A DNA stretch of 15,971 nucleotides from Rhodothermales bacterium. GTDB lineage: Bacteria > Bacteroidota > Rhodothermia > Rhodothermales > UBA10348. Numbering within the stretch: the first letter of the stretch is position 1; every line of letters starts with the position of its first letter. Below, one piece after another: positions 1 through 10,986 of the stretch. The stretch is taken from positions 1-15,971 of the forward strand of contig JANJTM010000024.1 of NCBI GenBank assembly GCA_024711125.1, read 5' to 3'. The notes below the pieces were generated by a model. The model was not told the DNA's origin. It searched no databases and worked only from the letters and a program-made list of their open reading frames with translations. The position numbers were made by a program, and so were the translations under genes.

Positions 1-146
1 CCGCCGGCTCCCTTGTAGTCCGATCGCTCCCCGTCGTAGGAGGCCGTCTGCAGGTGCAGCCCGACCTGGAGTCGTTCCGGATCGAACTGGGCAGCGGCCG
101 GCAGGACGGCGGAAAGGAGCAGGGCCGGGAGCAGGAATCGACGCAT
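1..146 (-). CDS. 5' end of a secreted or outer-membrane protein gene; the ATG is at 146 and the gene continues past the window start
   Basis: The reverse complement of 1-146 begins ATG and translates to MRRFLLPALLLSAVLPAAAQFDPERLQVGLHLQTASYDGERSDYKGAG. This is a basic n-region, a hydrophobic core and an AxA-like cleavage site (AAAQ|F), then an alternating hydrophobic/polar pattern. It is too short to appear in the ORF track. It lies directly downstream of the cytochrome terminator on the same strand. Confidence 0.45.
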   Translation of the reverse strand, partial: MRRFLLPALLLSAVLPAAAQFDPERLQVGLHLQTASYDGERSDYKGAG

Positions 147-171
147 GGCGGTGCGGAGTGAATTGACCCAA

Positions 172-216
172 TATCGAAAAAATAAGGCGGCCCGACTCGC
201 TGGAGTCGGGCCGCCC
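172..216 (-). terminator. Rho-independent terminator for the cytochrome gene
   Basis: A perfect 13-bp stem GGCGGCCCGACTC (186-198), loop gctgg, and stem GAGTCGGGCCGCC (204-216). On the minus strand it is followed by TTATTTTTTCG (reverse complement of 172-184). It sits 44 bp downstream of the cytochrome stop at 260. Confidence 0.6.
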
Positions 217-259
217 TCTCGACACGCCGGATGTCATCGCCCGTGATCGGGCGAATCCG

Positions 260-2932
260 TCACTTCATCAGCACGATCGACCGTTCGAATACGCGGTTGC
301 CGGTGCGCATCCGCACGATGTAGAGGCCGCTCGTCAGCGAGCTGCCGTCCATCTGCACGGTGTGGCGGCCGGCCGCCATCGTCTCGTTCACGAGCGTCTG
401 GACCTGGCGGCCGAGGATGTCATACACCGTGATGGTGATGGCGCTCGTGGCCGGCACGTCGTAGGAGATCGTCGTGGTCGGGTTGAACGGGTTCGGATAG
501 TTCTGATTCAGGGCGAACTCGGTCGGCAGGCCGGTGGCCTCGTTGGCCACCGAAACGGCCGCGGCCGCTTCGGCCGACGCGACACCCTGGTTTCCGTTGA
601 AGTCGGTTGCAGTCACCACGTAGTAGTAGTAATTGCCCGCGACGACGGTATTGTCGACGTAGGTCGGATCGGTGACGGTCGCGAGCGGAGTCGTCGGGGA
701 GAAGCCCGAGGTCGTTCCGCGGTAGACCGAGAAGAACTTGAAGTCGGCGTCGACCGGGTCGTCCCAGGTCAGCGTCACGCTGGATGCCGTCGCGTCGACG
801 ACCATGCCCGTCGGGGCCGACGGGGCGAGGTTGTCGGTCGACTGGCCCGCCATCGGGTTCGACATGGCCACGGCGCCCGAGCGCGTGTGGCCGGTCACCA
901 TGTACTCGGTGGCCGTGCCGTCGCCAAGGGTCGGAACGATGGCCGAGTAGTTCTCGAGCCGGGCGGCGGGCTGCTGGCCCACGGCCGTCCAGACTTCACC
1001 GGCGAGGTCGATCGCCATGCCCGCGGCTTCGCCTTCGACCTTGTCGAGCGTCGAGAGGTTGCCCTTGCCGGCGATGTTGTCCTTGCGCCAGATGTAGTAG
1101 GTCAGCACGGGGTCTTCGGCCACGCCGTCGCCGCCGAACTTCGACCACACGACCTGGACCTGCCGGCCCTGGTCGTTCGGAACGTCCAGCACGCTGGCGA
1201 TGGCACCCGGGGCGAGCACGCCGCCCTGGAGGGCACGCAGCGTCAGCTGGATGAGACCGACGGCATACTGGTAGTTGTGCATGCCCTCGGAATTGTCCTC
1301 GTGGACGTAGTTGTAGTTGAACGCGGCCTGCTTCTGGATCCGGGTGTAGCTGTTGGTCACGGTGAAGGTCGGGACACCGATCGGCGGAAGCAGCATGGCG
1401 ACCTGGTCCATCAGGCCGTGCAACTCATCGATGGCTGCCTCGACCGTCTTGTCGCCGTCGTAGTCGTAACGAGCCTGGATGTCGTGGAACGACTCCATCT
1501 CGCCGTGGCAGCGTTCGCACGCCGCGACGTTGTTGACGACCGCTCCGTTCACGAGCGCCTGCACGCCGAACGAGTGGCTGCCCAGCAGATTCTTTCCGGC
1601 GTCGTCCGAGGTCGGCGTCTCGTACATGTGGCAATCGACGCACGAGTTCTCGAGCGCGTCGCGGTGCGTCGAGCTCGGGATGTAGTACCCGAAGTTGTTG
1701 GCGACGTTATTGGCCGCCAGCATGTCGACCTGCGCCGAGCGGTGCGGATCCTGGCGGGTGCCGCCCGTTTCGACCTGGATGGCACCCGTGCGGCGAGCCT
1801 TGTGGCAGTTCATGCAGAGACGGCCCTTGCCGCCCCACTGGACCACGGTCCCGTCGATCAGCGTCACGTCGGCCACCGAGCGCAACTGGTTCGGATTGGC
1901 CGCGTCGTGCGGGTCGTGGCAGGCCGCGCACGTGATGGGCTCGCCGGTCCCGACCTTCTGATCGAGATTGGACAGCGGGTCGATCTTCGCGATGAAGCCC
2001 CACGTGGAGTGGCACTCGGCGCACGATGCACTGGTTCCGCGAGCAAAGGAGGCTCCCGTCGCGTGAATCGAGTTCTTCCACTGCAGCACGTACACGTGGT
2101 GCGTGCCCGAGTCGTGGCACTGCGCGCAGACCGCCGTTTCCACCGAGATGTCGGTGAAGTTGACGTCGCCCTTGTGCTCGGAGCCCGGTCCGTGGCAGGA
2201 TTCGCACTGGATCTGGGTCTTGGCCGCCAGCGCCGGGAAATTGTCGACGATGTTCTGCCAGTCGCCCGGTGCCGGATGCGACGGGAACGCCCAGCCGAGT
2301 TCGCGCTGCACGTCATCGAAGCCGCCGTTGTTCGCCGACGGATCGGTGTTGTACCCGAGCACGTGGCAGCTCAGGCAGCGCTCCATGAAGTGGTCGGTCG
2401 AGATGCCGTCGATCGCCAGCGTGAACGCGTGCGAGTGGTTCGTCGCTTCCCAGTCGACCGTGTTGTCGACGTGGCAGCCCGCGCACTGTCCGTTGCGGAA
2501 GTTCGGGTTCTGACCGGCGATCGAGCCCACGCCGACGTATTCGGCCGCCTTGACCTTGATCGAGGTCGAGGCGGGACCCGCGGCGGTCGTGATCGTCAGG
2601 TTGACGGTGTATTCACCGGCATCCATCGGGCGGAACGTGGTCCATTCCTGGCCCTGCGTGTCCGGCGCGACGGCGCCGCCGGTCGGCCCGGTGATCGACC
2701 ACTCGAACGCGGTAATGGCCTCGCCGCCCGCGTTCGAGCCCCGGAGATAGACGGTTTCGCCCTTGCCGACCACGTCGAGGCCGGACGAGGGCTTGGTGGT
2801 CCAACCGCGGTCGGCGAGATCGCGCGGGCTCATGCCCACGATCTTGATCCGGGCGGCCGGAACCATCTCGATGACGAACTGCGTGGCAGCCACCGCGAAG
2901 AGTGCGGCAACAAGCAGTATCAGTCGTTTCAT
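260..2932 (-). CDS. Nine-heme c-type cytochrome with a signal peptide, an FN3 domain and a T9SS (Por) C-terminal sorting domain
   Basis: ATG verified at 2930-2932 on the minus strand, giving MKRLILLVAALFAVAATQF as the signal peptide. The 966-aa track ORF carries 76 extra upstream residues that are unlikely to be real. Nine CxxCH motifs are present: CAGCH, CLSCH, CESCH, CAQCH, CAECH, CAACH, CMNCH, CVDCH and CERCH. An FN3-like segment follows (SVTLTWDDPVDADFKFFSVYRG...YYYVVTATDFNGNQG). The C-terminus NQNYPNPFNPTTTISYDVPATSAITITVYDILGRQVQTLVNE...SGLYIVRMRTGNRVFERSIVLMK matches the Por secretion tail consensus (TIGR04183-like). Confidence 0.9.
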   Translation of the reverse strand: MKRLILLVAALFAVAATQFVIEMVPAARIKIVGMSPRDLADRGWTTKPSSGLDVVGKGETVYLRGSNAGGEAITAFEWSITGPTGGAVAPDTQGQEWTTFRPMDAGEYTVNLTITTAAGPASTSIKVKAAEYVGVGSIAGQNPNFRNGQCAGCHVDNTVDWEATNHSHAFTLAIDGISTDHFMERCLSCHVLGYNTDPSANNGGFDDVQRELGWAFPSHPAPGDWQNIVDNFPALAAKTQIQCESCHGPGSEHKGDVNFTDISVETAVCAQCHDSGTHHVYVLQWKNSIHATGASFARGTSASCAECHSTWGFIAKIDPLSNLDQKVGTGEPITCAACHDPHDAANPNQLRSVADVTLIDGTVVQWGGKGRLCMNCHKARRTGAIQVETGGTRQDPHRSAQVDMLAANNVANNFGYYIPSSTHRDALENSCVDCHMYETPTSDDAGKNLLGSHSFGVQALVNGAVVNNVAACERCHGEMESFHDIQARYDYDGDKTVEAAIDELHGLMDQVAMLLPPIGVPTFTVTNSYTRIQKQAAFNYNYVHEDNSEGMHNYQYAVGLIQLTLRALQGGVLAPGAIASVLDVPNDQGRQVQVVWSKFGGDGVAEDPVLTYYIWRKDNIAGKGNLSTLDKVEGEAAGMAIDLAGEVWTAVGQQPAARLENYSAIVPTLGDGTATEYMVTGHTRSGAVAMSNPMAGQSTDNLAPSAPTGMVVDATASSVTLTWDDPVDADFKFFSVYRGTTSGFSPTTPLATVTDPTYVDNTVVAGNYYYYVVTATDFNGNQGVASAEAAAAVSVANEATGLPTEFALNQNYPNPFNPTTTISYDVPATSAITITVYDILGRQVQTLVNETMAAGRHTVQMDGSSLTSGLYIVRMRTGNRVFERSIVLMK

Positions 2933-3226
2933 TTGGAAAAGTGCTCCCGGCAGGAAATGCCTTGGCCCTGCCGTCAATGATACTTGGATGGGCCCTCTCA
3001 CCGAGTCTTGCGTCTCGCCGGGGGCGTTCTTGACGTTCCAGCGCCCGCGGACCCGGCATTCCGGGCGATCCGCGCGCGCGGGATCGTCGGGAACAAGGAT
3101 AGGAGCCGACGGGCCCGGAAAGCCCCGGCATTCGTCCGATTTGGGTGTCGGCTGACCCATGCTCCGCGGTGAGAGATAAAACCCGGGGGAGCATGAAGCA
3201 ATGGATTACAACGCGAGTAGCCTTTT

Positions 3227-3244
3227 CCTTACATGCGTGTAAGG
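3227..3244. promoter_or_regulatory. Inverted repeat CCTTACA-tgcg-TGTAAGG in the divergent intergenic region
   Basis: Read directly from the sequence. It lies in the relatively AT-rich 435-bp intergenic region between the cytochrome start (2932, minus) and the hypothetical gene (3368, plus). An inverted repeat of this size is expected by chance in a window this long, so the support is weak. Confidence 0.2.
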
Positions 3245-3304
3245 GCGCGGTAGGTGCCACCTCCCGGATCGATGCGGAAAGTCCTGAAAAACACCAAAAT
3301 GACC

Positions 3305-3324
3305 TGTGACAAATCGTTGTCACA
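3305..3324. promoter_or_regulatory. Candidate operator, a 20-bp perfect palindrome TGTGACAA-atcg-TTGTCACA
   Basis: 8-bp perfect arms with a 4-bp spacer. It sits 44-63 bp upstream of the ATG at 3368 and about 370 bp upstream of the divergent cytochrome gene. It has TGTGA/TCACA half-sites like CRP/FNR-type sites, but with different spacing. Confidence 0.35.
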
Positions 3325-3367
3325 TCCCTTGCGATATGTTGCCGTCGACACTGAAACACGCACCGCC

Positions 3368-3982
3368 ATGACCGCTCCGTCCACCCGACCCACCGTCGCC
3401 GACCTGCTCCGGCTGCGCCGTTCCGCGCCTCGTACCCGCGCGGTCCACCTCGCCACGCCCGGCCCCGAAGGCATGCTGTCCGAATCCCTTTCGCGCGCCG
3501 TCGCGCCGGGCGTGCGCGTGCTGCGTCGCACGGTCGTGGAGACTCCCGCGGGACGCAGCCATGTTCCGCTCGTTCTGGAATCGGCCGGTCGGCGCATCGC
3601 GGTCCTTCCGGACGACGCGGCCGGGCCCGCTTCGGCAGAGGACGCGGCCATGATCCTGGTCTTCGGCGTGTTCGACGTCGTCTACCGGGTGCGGCGCCGG
3701 GCCCTGCTCGGCGACGTACCCGGCGTGGCAGCCGAGATTGCGGGGCAGGAGCCGACGCTGTTCGACGACGAATCGCGCCGCGCAATGCGCCTGTGCGCGT
3801 TGCCGCGCAAGGCCGGGGCAACGGCCTCGGATCGTCCACCGGTCCGTCCCGCGGCGGGTTCGTCGATGGTGGACGTGCGCGTGATGCGGCTGAAGTGCCC
3901 GACCGAGTGGGCCGACGCCTTCGAAATGGCGATGCGGTCGGTCGAAGCGACGCGGGCCCCCCTCTTTGCGCGCAGCGCCTGA
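3368..3982 (+). CDS. Hypothetical protein of about 204 aa with no recognisable domain
   Basis: An ORF with strongly GC-biased third codon positions throughout (MTAPSTRPTVADLLRLRR...FEMAMRSVEATRAPLFARSA). The track begins it at 3254, but that extension covers the AT-richer palindrome region, so the ATG at 3368 is preferred. It converges on the flotillin stop with a 9-bp gap. The antisense 549-aa ORF 2613..4262 is Arg/Pro-rich junk. Confidence 0.5.
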   Translation: MTAPSTRPTVADLLRLRRSAPRTRAVHLATPGPEGMLSESLSRAVAPGVRVLRRTVVETPAGRSHVPLVLESAGRRIAVLPDDAAGPASAEDAAMILVFGVFDVVYRVRRRALLGDVPGVAAEIAGQEPTLFDDESRRAMRLCALPRKAGATASDRPPVRPAAGSSMVDVRVMRLKCPTEWADAFEMAMRSVEATRAPLFARSA

Positions 3983-7793: not shown

Positions 7794-8303
7794 ATGACTC
7801 CGTCATTTCTCGCCGCACTCACCCGGAGGTTCTCCTCCGATGACCTCGCGTGGAAGCCCGTCGCCGTCAACCGCGAGCAGGGCCGGGCGCGGGTCGTGCC
7901 GTACGTCACGAACCGCGCGATCATGGATCGACTGGACCAGGTATGCGGTCCGGAAAACTGGCGCAACGAGTATTGCCCGGGCCCGAACGGCGGCCTGCTC
8001 TGCGGCATCTCGATACGCCTCGTACGCGAGGATCATACCGCGGAGTGGGTTACCAAGTGGGACGGCGCCGAGAATACCCAGCTCGAGCCGGTCAAGGGCG
8101 GTCTCTCGGCCTCCATGCGCCGGGCCGCCGTGCAGTGGGGCATCGGTCGGTACCTCTATCGCATCCCGCCGATCGAGGCCCGGGTAGACGAACAGGGCCG
8201 ACTCGTGGGACGTCCGGAGCTTCCTCCGGAGTTCCGGCCCGAGCCGGTCGAACCGCGCCGTCTCCGCCCCGCGGCCGCCAGGGCCCGCGAGATGGCCGCA
8301 TAA
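7794..8303 (+). CDS. ddrA: Rad52/Rad22-family single-strand annealing protein (DdrA-like)
   Basis: LAWKPVAVNREQGRARVVPYVTNRAIMDRLDQVCGPENWRNEY ... GGLSASMRRAAVQWGIGRYLYRIPP carries the two hallmark blocks of bacterial and phage Rad52-family proteins. The first block matches the pattern W/SWKP...V.PYV..R.I.DRLD.V.GP..W. The second matches A.KRAAVQ(F/W)GIGRYLY, as in Deinococcus DdrA and phage Sak. ATG at 7794 verified. Confidence 0.75.
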   Translation: MTPSFLAALTRRFSSDDLAWKPVAVNREQGRARVVPYVTNRAIMDRLDQVCGPENWRNEYCPGPNGGLLCGISIRLVREDHTAEWVTKWDGAENTQLEPVKGGLSASMRRAAVQWGIGRYLYRIPPIEARVDEQGRLVGRPELPPEFRPEPVEPRRLRPAAARAREMAA

Positions 8304-10904: not shown

Positions 10905-10913
10905 CAAATCGAG

Positions 10914-10986
<73 letters not shown>

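Follow-up and report, generated by a model that had tools for sequence, protein, structure and literature searches.

A nonaheme cytochrome of the OcwA/OmhA type that carries a T9SS sorting domain in a Rhodothermales bacterium

Cytochromes are known to reach the cell surface by type II export with a lipoprotein anchor, as for MtrC and OmcA of Shewanella, in filaments, as in Geobacter, or within the cell wall or S-layer of Gram-positives, as for OcwA and OmhA. The OcwA-type nonaheme module is, to our knowledge, known only from two Gram-positive thermophiles. OcwA (TherJR_2595 of Thermincola potens, PDB 6I5B), a nonaheme protein, and OmhA (Carboxydothermus ferrireducens, PDB 6QVM), an undecaheme protein associated with the S-layer, both from metal-reducing Gram-positives, are by experiment cell-surface terminal reductases of extracellular electron transfer (EET) (PMC6703420, PMC9250108, PMC7829351). 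Nitrite and hydroxylamine are further in vitro substrates of OcwA (PMC6703420), so that the substrate of a relative is not fixed by homology alone. Here we describe a gene whose product has these two proteins as its closest characterised relatives. It lies in a window of 15,971 nucleotides, the whole stretch of DNA that was analysed, from a Rhodothermales bacterium (GCA_024711125.1, contig JANJTM010000024.1).

The cytochrome gene is complete and occupies positions 260..2932 of the reverse strand, with its stop codon at 260-262. Translation, a motif census and homologue alignment give a protein of 890 aa that begins MKRLILL, and the identical protein is carried by a second contig (L001), which matches the window at 99.79% identity across 10,830 nt. 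An open reading frame of 966 aa with an ATG at 3160 was rejected as the true start, since homologues start at the MKR/MKK position. The stretch 5' of that start, 2933..3165 (-), is conserved with two relatives (L082 and L092) in blocks, but indels there break the frame; it is annotated as a non-coding leader or promoter region, has an RNA fold z of -2.4 and matched no Rfam family. The earlier note had worked from the longer frame and placed the sorting domain at residues 890-966; the domain stands, whereas its numbering does not, the real position being aa 812-887. Separately, the Amt protein shows 70-74% identity to Rhodothermales sequences, which marks the host as Rhodothermales-like.

The protein opens with a Sec-type signal peptide of about 19 residues (MKRLILLVAALFAVAATQF, 2876..2932, reverse strand as are all the domains below), read from the sequence as MKR followed by LILLVAALFAVAA, with a 13-residue hydrophobic core and an AVA-A site; the structural model has a helix at aa 2-22. 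A lipoprotein was considered and rejected, as there is no cysteine in the signal peptide and none outside the CxxCH motifs. An N-terminal Ig-like (PKD/filamin-like) beta-sandwich follows at aa 27-130 (2543..2854), seen in weak Pfam Filamin/PKD matches and in model strands, and then the nonaheme c-type cytochrome domain, OcwA/OmhA-like, at aa 135-572 (1217..2530), which ends in a three-helix bundle (aa 500-513, 531-544 and 551-570 in the AF2 model). Next come a beta-sandwich spacer at aa 575-700 (833..1210), recognised from model strands and from family-specific HMM matches in relatives, and a fibronectin type III (FN3) domain at aa 704-797 (542..823). The spacer contains a conserved DVPNDQG...W motif of which D583, D587, G589 and W596 are invariant in an alignment of 59 homologues. 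At the end lies a type A T9SS C-terminal sorting domain, aa 805-890 (263..520), with matches to PF18962 and TIGR04183 and seven strands in the model. The Sec signal, nine CxxCH sites, FN3 and T9SS domain that had been proposed to occur in one protein are thus all present by motif census, profiles and alignment, and support its prediction as a Sec-exported, T9SS-sorted multiheme cytochrome with the full signature of that class. Ig-like plus heme is also the commonest architecture ('nig-heme') among 150 family representatives and 81 metagenome ORFs, and by these comparisons the two domains travel together as one conserved module.

The census of heme sites proposed in the earlier note gives nine CxxCH motifs, at aa 150, 186, 243, 269, 304, 335, 373, 431 and 472. 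These sites account for every one of the 18 cysteines, and all nine motifs are invariant across the 59 full-length homologues, which argues that the sites are not due to chance. The same alignment reveals nine conserved histidines outside the motifs (H166, H253, H279, H290, H342, H397, H423, H453 and H552), a number that would permit largely bis-His coordination of the nine hemes. The motif scan of the protein found CxxCH sites only, with neither a CxxCK nor a CX15CH of the MccA type.

Profile comparison matches the cytochrome to OcwA and OmhA with E values of 9.8e-26 and 4.3e-19, and these two are also its best structural matches. Hemes 1-9 align collinearly, one to one, with hemes 1-9 of OcwA, the three-helix bundle of the OcwA/OmhA clade is conserved in the model, and a D-x-S-x-G-x-H-N motif, of which GxHN is conserved, aligns to DGSNGVHNY of OcwA. 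Heme packing like that of OmcA/MtrC, OTR or cytochrome c554 had been put forward for comparison, and the predicted fold is instead of the OcwA/NrfA type. At the N-terminal penta-coordinated heme, the non-bonding distal histidine is defined as H282 in OcwA, H281 being variable (PMC9250108). The equivalent of H282 is H279, a histidine in 55 of the 59 homologues, and H278 corresponds to H281, with histidine in 32 and tyrosine in 21. The second distal His-His pocket (H380/H381), by which OcwA and OmhA are defined, is missing: in its place the window protein reads Q394/D395 and the family [YF]-G, and position 393, one residue before, is histidine in 44/59 homologues but arginine in the window protein. 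The replacement of this pocket marks a related yet distinct subfamily. Furthermore, near the methionine aligned in OcwA the cytochrome family has the conserved H423, so heme coordination may differ from that of OcwA.

These details bear on whether the protein might be a secreted or surface enzyme for soluble nitrogen or sulfur compounds (nitrite, hydroxylamine, sulfite or tetrathionate), as NrfA, ONR and MccA are, rather than a conduit to solids. The in vitro activities of OcwA leave room for such a role, but we consider it unlikely. The heme motifs lack the CxxCK and CX15CH variants, H380/H381 of OcwA, a C-terminal active-site pocket of the NrfA type, have no conserved counterpart, and the supply of histidines for bis-His ligation points the same way. 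Such oxyanions also reach the periplasm, which would make T9SS export with Ig/FN3 spacers needless, and what adjoins the gene in relatives is electron-transfer cytochromes and a quinol dehydrogenase rather than accessory genes of Nrf or Mcc.

The sorting domain itself, which closes the protein (aa 812-887 of 890), exceeds both curated cut-offs by a wide margin, with 46 bits against 27 for PF18962 and 42.3 bits against 23 for TIGR04183, as the earlier note had anticipated. In the AF2 model it forms seven strands over aa 807-888 with pLDDT mostly 85-92; the type A fold is described as an immunoglobulin-like seven-strand beta-sandwich (PMC11285876), and the same source counts Rhodothermota among the T9SS-bearing phyla. 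The motifs NYPNPFNP, G869/Y871 and the terminal lysine are invariant or nearly so over the 59 homologues at 35-82% identity, which indicates purifying selection. Were the domain nevertheless unused for secretion, being vestigial or in a genome without a T9SS, the cytochrome would be periplasmic. To its credit, this would accord with the 56-72% of the heme-domain family that has no recognisable T9SS domain, but it is hard to reconcile with scores far above both thresholds, with selection on the motifs, with the confinement of T9SS-domain carriers to FCB lineages, and with further T9SS-tagged proteins near relatives, and we regard it as very unlikely. No T9SS core gene (PorK/L/M/N, SprA, PorU/V) was found within the ~22 kb covered by the window and L001; the same ~22 kb contains no cytochrome maturation gene, other cytochrome, porin-like protein or quinol dehydrogenase, which leaves the path of electrons to the surface without support in this organism.

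Downstream of the cytochrome a strong intrinsic terminator lies at 184..217 (-), with a 15-bp stem of which 11 pairs are GC, followed by ATTTTTT. The signal-peptide gene reported directly after it on the same strand is confirmed: it starts at 146 with MRRFLLPALLLSAVLPAAAQF, and the first 48 codons (1..146, reverse strand) run off the window. Read from L001, the complete product has 800 aa: its signal peptide is followed by a small barrel of the OmpA type, by five PKD repeats and, C-terminally, by an OmpA-like domain. The suspected beta-barrel is therefore real, albeit small, PF13505 (OMP_b-brl) matching at 29.5 bits against a cut-off of 28.7 over ~190 aa and about eight amphipathic strands. 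The idea that the two genes form a porin-cytochrome module draws on their adjacency on one strand, 113 nt apart, on the signal peptide and outer-membrane barrel of the second product, and on retention of the pair in a relative of 82% identity. Against this, the GC-rich terminator separates the genes, some eight strands is the size of OmpA/OmpX compared with 20-26 in Pcc/MtrB porins, the PKD repeats and OmpA-like peptidoglycan-binding domain are expected to face the periplasm, and the 800-aa protein has no CxxCH motif. Outside the near-identical contig and the one 82%-identical relative, the downstream gene was found beside the cytochrome at 0/10 other annotated loci and 0/32 metagenome loci (at least 12 kb). 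The pair shows no adjacent 20-26-strand porin, no periplasmic multiheme partner and no synteny beyond these close relatives, and the module is highly improbable. The proposed partner is an outer-membrane protein, as surmised, and not the porin of a porin-cytochrome complex. As far as the gene content indicates, it is no partner of the cytochrome, and the claim made for this window covers one gene, the suspected partner being unrelated.

The family extends to 379 representative clusters at E<=1e-30, with members in Rhodothermales, Ignavibacteria, KSB1, Calditrichota and Marinimicrobia. Of the 150 representatives, 66 have a T9SS domain, and so do 23 of 81 complete ORFs from metagenomes (28-44%), the named carriers all belonging to T9SS-bearing FCB lineages; members without the tag have other extracellular-type C-terminal domains. 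No link between T9SS and multiheme cytochromes is described in the searchable literature, and the earlier view that such cargo is unusual holds there but fails in the sequence data, where it is common. Gene neighbourhoods were sampled at 12 annotated loci and 32 metagenome loci of at least 12 kb. Additional ORFs with at least four CxxCH motifs occur at 4 of the former and 18 of the latter, and orthologous NapC/NirT-like hexahemes are found at three loci (47-59% identity) and at 5/32 metagenome loci. DUF2339 proteins, porin-like proteins and cytochromes of 6 to 14 hemes recur, sigma-54 regulators often adjoin, and other T9SS-tagged proteins are encoded nearby, including at one locus a second, unrelated T9SS-tagged multiheme cytochrome. 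In two relatives (L002 and L088) the gene adjoins one for a porin-like protein and others for cytochromes with 12 to 14 hemes, resembling Pcc clusters, and Pcc homologues have been reported in Ignavibacterium and Melioribacter (PMC6137239).

We propose, with a probability of about 0.55, that the cytochrome, one of a large FCB clade of OcwA/OmhA-type nonaheme proteins, is exported by T9SS across the outer membrane and, on its outer face or beyond, would exchange electrons with extracellular acceptors or donors. The extracellular redox role envisaged in the earlier note is thereby partly supported, by relatives that are surface terminal reductases and by the multiheme and NapC/NirT-like genes clustered with other family members. 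With the same export and location, electrons could instead flow inward, the protein acting as a surface oxidase of Fe(II), Mn(II), reduced humics, minerals or a partner cell that feeds an aerobic or nitrate-respiring chain. Rhodothermales is an order known mostly from aerobic heterotrophs, multiheme wires are reversible in principle, and one relative adjoins Rieske/cytochrome b genes. Both characterised relatives are reductases, however, and the NapC/NirT-like neighbours are typical of quinol-oxidising outward pathways, so that we judge an inward direction improbable.

On the proposed reading of T9SS export and extracellular electron exchange, the N-terminal signal peptide would direct Sec export, and nine hemes would be attached covalently in the periplasm at the nine invariant CxxCH motifs. 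The folded type A domain would then be recognised and the protein passed through the T9SS translocon, after which a PorU-type sortase may remove the domain, leading to release or to anchoring on anionic LPS, as T9SS biology suggests (PMC11285876). In an anchored state the FN3 and beta-sandwich domains could serve as a stalk. An OcwA-like chain of nine hemes would pass electrons to extracellular Fe(III)/Mn(IV) oxides, humics or electrodes, whether insoluble or soluble, and the heme-2 site, whose pocket histidine is conserved, may be open as in OcwA. The prime candidates for taking electrons across the outer membrane are, in relatives, products of nearby genes: porin-like proteins, cytochromes of 6 to 14 hemes and NapC/NirT-like quinol dehydrogenases. 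With a C-terminal anchor, we infer that two Ig-type spacers would hold the heme domain several nm off the membrane, an awkward arrangement for direct electron hand-over.

More broadly, and tentatively, at somewhat below even odds, T9SS may be a general and previously unrecognised FCB route that exports and surface-anchors EET cytochromes, with an OcwA-type module that is mainly diderm, fed by Pcc-like conduits and a NapC/NirT-like quinol dehydrogenase under sigma-54 two-component control. The lineages that this possible route would span are Rhodothermales, Ignavibacteria/Melioribacteraceae, KSB1, Calditrichota, Marinimicrobia and Latescibacteria. The FCB superphylum abounds in sediments, soils, hot springs and oxygen-minimum zones, and we know of no defined terminal reductase for its iron-reducing members such as Melioribacter. 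If the general route is real, there would be widespread overlooked electroactivity in abundant FCB lineages of sediment, soil and ocean. To the known routes to the cell surface, T9SS sorting of an OcwA-type cytochrome would add one that is specific to this superphylum, and the cargo range of T9SS would extend to cofactor-loaded redox proteins. As a marker that is both concrete and widespread, the combination of an Ig-like and nonaheme module with a T9SS domain could predict electroactivity in uncultured FCB lineages.

In comparison with known systems, OcwA comes from a monoderm Firmicute whereas the host here is a diderm FCB bacterium, and the cytochrome differs in its probable export and anchoring by way of a T9SS C-terminal domain and in its extra N-terminal Ig-like domain and C-terminal beta-sandwich and FN3 domains. 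OmhA has two additional N-terminal hemes and no T9SS domain. The periplasmic N- and S-cycle enzymes NrfA, ONR, HAO and MccA are weaker structural matches than OcwA and OmhA; unlike them, the cytochrome has no CxxCK or CX15CH catalytic motif and combines nine hemes with an extracellular sorting signal. MtrC, OmcA and MtrF of Shewanella, exported by type II secretion, are analogous in the proposed role, that of a multiheme terminal reductase exposed at the surface of a Gram-negative cell. The cytochrome, which has a local Pfam match to PF22113 (42 bits, aa 239-310), has neither the four-domain staggered-cross decaheme fold nor the lipoprotein signal of MtrC and OmcA. The window contains no conduit of the Pcc/Mtr kind, the downstream neighbour being an OmpA-type protein and not a conduit porin. 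With canonical T9SS type A cargo, such as RgpB, the Flavobacterium chitinase and adhesins, the protein shares the Sec signal and the ~80-aa beta-sandwich type A C-terminal domain, and Ig/FN3 spacers are frequent in such cargo; the canonical passenger is a hydrolase, adhesin or motility protein, whereas here it is a multiheme redox protein.

The cytochrome is encoded on the minus strand at 260-2932 as a protein of 890 residues with the N-terminus MKRLILLVAALFAVAATQF. A 966-residue in-frame ORF opening at the ATG at 3160 was considered as the true start and rejected, as 58 full-length homologues start at MKR or MKK and the additional stretch (2933-3165) is interrupted by 1-nt and 4-nt frame-breaking indels relative to two relatives. 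Nine CxxCH motifs (residues 150, 186, 243, 269, 304, 335, 373, 431 and 472) contain all 18 cysteines of the protein, and each motif is invariant in an alignment of 59 sequences; nine histidines outside the motifs (H166, H253, H279, H290, H342, H397, H423, H453 and H552) vary little or not at all. Over its last 80 residues the protein matches PF18962 with 46 bits (cut-off 27) and the C-terminus matches TIGR04183 with 42.3 bits (cut-off 23). The motif census and these scores above curated cut-offs confirm that the T9SS-tagged nine-heme cytochrome described in the earlier note is real; that description holds overall, although its strand and numbering detail does not, and the Pfam FN3 score is sub-threshold.

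The family profile, searched against all PDB sequences, matched OcwA of Thermincola potens best (6I5B, E 9.8e-26) and OmhA of Carboxydothermus ferrireducens second (6QVM, E 4.3e-19), with NrfA (1e-8) and cytochrome c554 well below. Structural comparison scored OcwA at 16.9 (r.m.s.d. 3.3 Å over 310 residues), OmhA at 16.6, three NrfA structures at 14.0-13.4, octaheme nitrite reductase at 13.4, HAO at 8.3 and MccA at 7.9. In the alignment the heme motifs of the cytochrome pair one-to-one with the nine of OcwA, and the match also takes in CVDCHM, the motif of heme 8, and, in the C-terminal three-helix bundle, D-x-S-x-G-x-H-N. A secreted enzyme acting on soluble nitrogen or sulfur compounds is an alternative that we consider unlikely. 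OcwA and OmhA are both experimentally characterised cell-surface terminal reductases from two Gram-positive metal reducers (PMC6703420, PMC9250108, PMC7829351).

The cytochrome had also been proposed to form a porin-cytochrome module with the next gene on the minus strand, which starts at 146, beyond an intrinsic terminator at 217-184 (minus strand; a GC-rich 15-bp hairpin with an ATTTTTT tail), and is truncated by the window edge. A near-identical contig, L001 (99.79% identity over 10,830 nt), reaches 5.8 kb past the left edge of the window and supplies the complete protein of 800 residues, with a signal peptide, an OMP_b-brl domain (PF13505, residues 8-199, 29.5 bits against a cut-off of 28.7), five PKD repeats with proline-rich linkers between them and an OmpA-like C-terminal domain (26.5 bits, just below the 27.2 cut-off). 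It has no CxxCH motif, and the barrel call rests on PF13505 just over threshold and a count of about eight amphipathic strands in the barrel region. A homologue search with the barrel domain gave nothing, and in the PDB and NCBIfam the protein found PKD and weak OmpA-like matches only. Judged by its sequence plan, it appears to be an OmpA-type envelope protein and not a 20-26-strand conduit porin, with the non-barrel part expected to face the periplasm. The gene pair is kept in the relative of 82% identity, where the neighbour is 59% identical, and nowhere else: the downstream gene was not found at ten other annotated loci of relatives and is missing at all 32 metagenome loci of at least 12 kb. 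Because the pair is conserved in that single relative and a terminator lies between the genes, the two-gene module was ruled out, and we regard a porin-cytochrome pair as extremely improbable.

What is of interest is the cytochrome family and the way it is exported rather than the two-gene arrangement in the window. A full-database search with the 890-residue query returned 634 relatives, the full-length matches among them (35-49% identity) being named merely 'T9SS type A sorting domain-containing protein' and coming from Rhodothermales, Melioribacteraceae, Ignavibacteriales, KSB1, Calditrichaeota, Marinimicrobia, Fidelibacterota and Latescibacterota. When 1.84 billion cluster representatives were searched without filters, using just the heme domain as query, 379 clusters were obtained at E<=1e-30, a number that rose to 1208 at E<=1e-10. 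When the best 150 representatives were scored with HMMs made from sections of the family alignment, exactly nine CxxCH motifs were present in 97 and a T9SS domain in 66, and the recurring unit was an Ig-like and nonaheme pair, in some proteins present two or three times over (18-24 hemes). A profile search of genome contigs was swamped by the generic NYPNPFNP pattern and recovered one full-length relative (locus L002); the metagenome scan used an alignment of the heme domain only, and this independent set of C-terminally complete ORFs carries nine hemes in 68 of 81 and the T9SS domain in 23 of 81. Because the domain is this frequent in both sets, a multiheme cytochrome as T9SS cargo, which the earlier note had called unusual, is so for the literature but not in nature.

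The Ig-like and nonaheme unit also occurs in tandem within one protein (16-24 CxxCH, up to 1946 residues) and as sets of two or three neighbouring paralogues, in some cases each with a T9SS tag (proteins P0121-P0123, P0129 and P0133; loci L107, L135, L148 and L153). Many members that lack the T9SS domain end with a calcium-binding or thrombospondin-type DxDxDG stretch and then a conserved domain of about 100 residues that closes with '...FYRV' (P0138, P0145, P0153, P0158, P0161, P0163, P0186 and others). This ending suggests that other phyla use another signal for surface location or secretion. In the searchable literature we found no paper that joins T9SS or type IX secretion to multiheme cytochromes; T9SS with extracellular electron transfer gave only a review on OMVs, a sorting domain with multiheme only an archaeal review, and T9SS with c-type cytochrome, among the matches listed, nothing relevant by title, nor was there anything relevant in a paper on Melioribacter respiration or a large-scale survey of outer-membrane cytochromes. 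This large cytochrome family is undescribed in that literature.

The genes around the relatives connect the family to electron transfer. At four of 12 flanked loci (L002, L083, L088 and L089), from distant lineages, the gene lies among further multiheme cytochromes, in clusters that share orthologous components. A NapC/NirT-like hexaheme protein of about 500 residues is shared by L002, L083 and L089 (47-59% between copies), a DUF2339 membrane protein by L083 and L089 (42%), a cytochrome of about 285 residues by L083 and L088 (38%), and 12- to 14-heme cytochromes by L002 and L088 (35%). At the last two loci, porin-like proteins without a Pfam match (L002 2121-4442, 773 residues; L088 13284-14576, 430 residues and with a signal peptide; 24%, E 3e-14) precede the 12- to 14-heme cytochromes beside family members and are candidate conduit porins. 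Two genes downstream of the 47%-identical relative in L083, with a small response-regulator gene between, lies a second, unrelated T9SS-tagged multiheme protein (13767-16787, 1006 residues, seven CxxCH, EB_dh heme-binding domain), so that the OcwA-like family is not the only one with T9SS-sorted cytochromes. Of the 32 metagenome loci, 18 have one or more additional ORFs with at least four CxxCH and 14 have two or more; a NapC/NirT-like gene is present at five and an NtrC-type activator at eight. Such recurrent neighbours would be expected of an extracellular electron-transfer pathway. No such neighbour genes were found in the window or L001, and a tblastn search of the window with the relatives' accessory genes (porin-like, NapC/NirT-like, DUF2339 and response regulators) matched the cytochrome alone.

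Sigma-54-dependent activators and small single-domain response regulators (82-131 residues) flank the gene at L083, L084, L085, L088 and L090, which hints at a conserved regulatory circuit, missing from the locus in the window. A sigma-54-like TGGCAC-N8-GC at 3244-3258 (minus strand), some 310 nt ahead of the cytochrome start, is noteworthy since relatives adjoin sigma-54 activators; it is probably a chance match, having no counterpart upstream in the 82%-identical relative and no consistent one upstream of other relatives. The region 2933-3165 (minus strand), about 230 nt and non-coding, is conserved with the loci of the relatives of 82% (L082) and 60% (L092) protein identity in alignments that contain frame-breaking indels. 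Its folding is somewhat better than that of shuffled sequences (z = -2.4), it has no Rfam match, and it may act as a structured leader or as a promoter/operator region. A perfect palindrome of 20 bp, TGTGACAacgattTGTCACA, occupies 3305-3324 in the intergenic region that separates the cytochrome from a divergent hypothetical gene. L082 retains part of this palindrome, which was also picked up as terminator-like and to which a regulator may bind. The divergent gene (3254-3982, plus strand) encodes about 240 residues, and a 206-residue gene occupies the matching position in L082 (999-1619, minus strand), both without a Pfam match.

Elsewhere the window and L001 encode a flotillin, NfeD, P-II, Amt, a MoeB-rhodanese, a pentapeptide-repeat protein, XdhC, a carboxylesterase, a DUF4440 protein and a molybdenum hydroxylase subunit, together with a tRNA-Ala (GGC) at 10913-10986 (minus strand) on which ARAGORN and Rfam agree; YdjM and an RND efflux pump lie beyond the window. 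A Rad52/Rad22-family protein of 169 residues (7794-8303, plus strand; PF04098, 51.7 bits) stands alone between Amt/P-II and MoeB-rhodanese, and this family is unusual on a bacterial chromosome outside prophages. The Amt protein shares 70-74% identity with Rhodothermales sequences, that of Rhodocaloribacter litoris among them, which assigns the contig to a Rhodothermales-like bacterium. T9SS is reported for FCB phyla that include Rhodothermota; in this system PorU cleaves the C-terminal domain, and the cargo is either released or joined to anionic LPS at the external side of the outer membrane (PMC11285876).

The analysis shows a signal peptide motif, nine heme sites that are conserved, an OcwA-type fold, a conserved sorting domain of type A and an association of the family with other electron-transfer genes. 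These features point to a cytochrome that is exported by T9SS, anchored or released, and exchanges electrons with extracellular substrates, a reading to which we assign a probability of roughly 0.55. Sec export would be followed by heme attachment in the periplasm, passage of the folded holo-protein through T9SS and cleavage of the sorting domain, after which the protein would be anchored at the surface, with FN3 and the beta-sandwich as a stalk, or released, and would there exchange electrons. Retention in the periplasm is very unlikely given the conserved sorting domain. The same export route and location with the cytochrome working in the oxidative direction is improbable, OcwA and OmhA being terminal reductases.

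Two distal-pocket traits define the OcwA/OmhA clade, and the cytochrome keeps one. H282 of OcwA corresponds to H279, a histidine in 55 of 59 family sequences, whereas the H380/H381 pocket is not kept, the cytochrome having Q394/D395 and the family [YF]-G at the aligned positions; the family histidine lies one position upstream of [YF]-G and is an arginine in the cytochrome. Because the H282 equivalent is kept and H380/H381 are lost, we place the cytochrome, by sequence, in a putative subfamily that is sister to OcwA/OmhA rather than inside that clade in the strict sense. The closest published statement that we found is that OcwA groups in a tree with nonahemes of Gram-negative bacteria (Gavrilov 2021, PMC7829351). 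Taken together, the description of the protein as an OcwA-type predicted surface cytochrome, in which a T9SS sorting domain is the adaptation to diderm FCB bacteria, is well supported.
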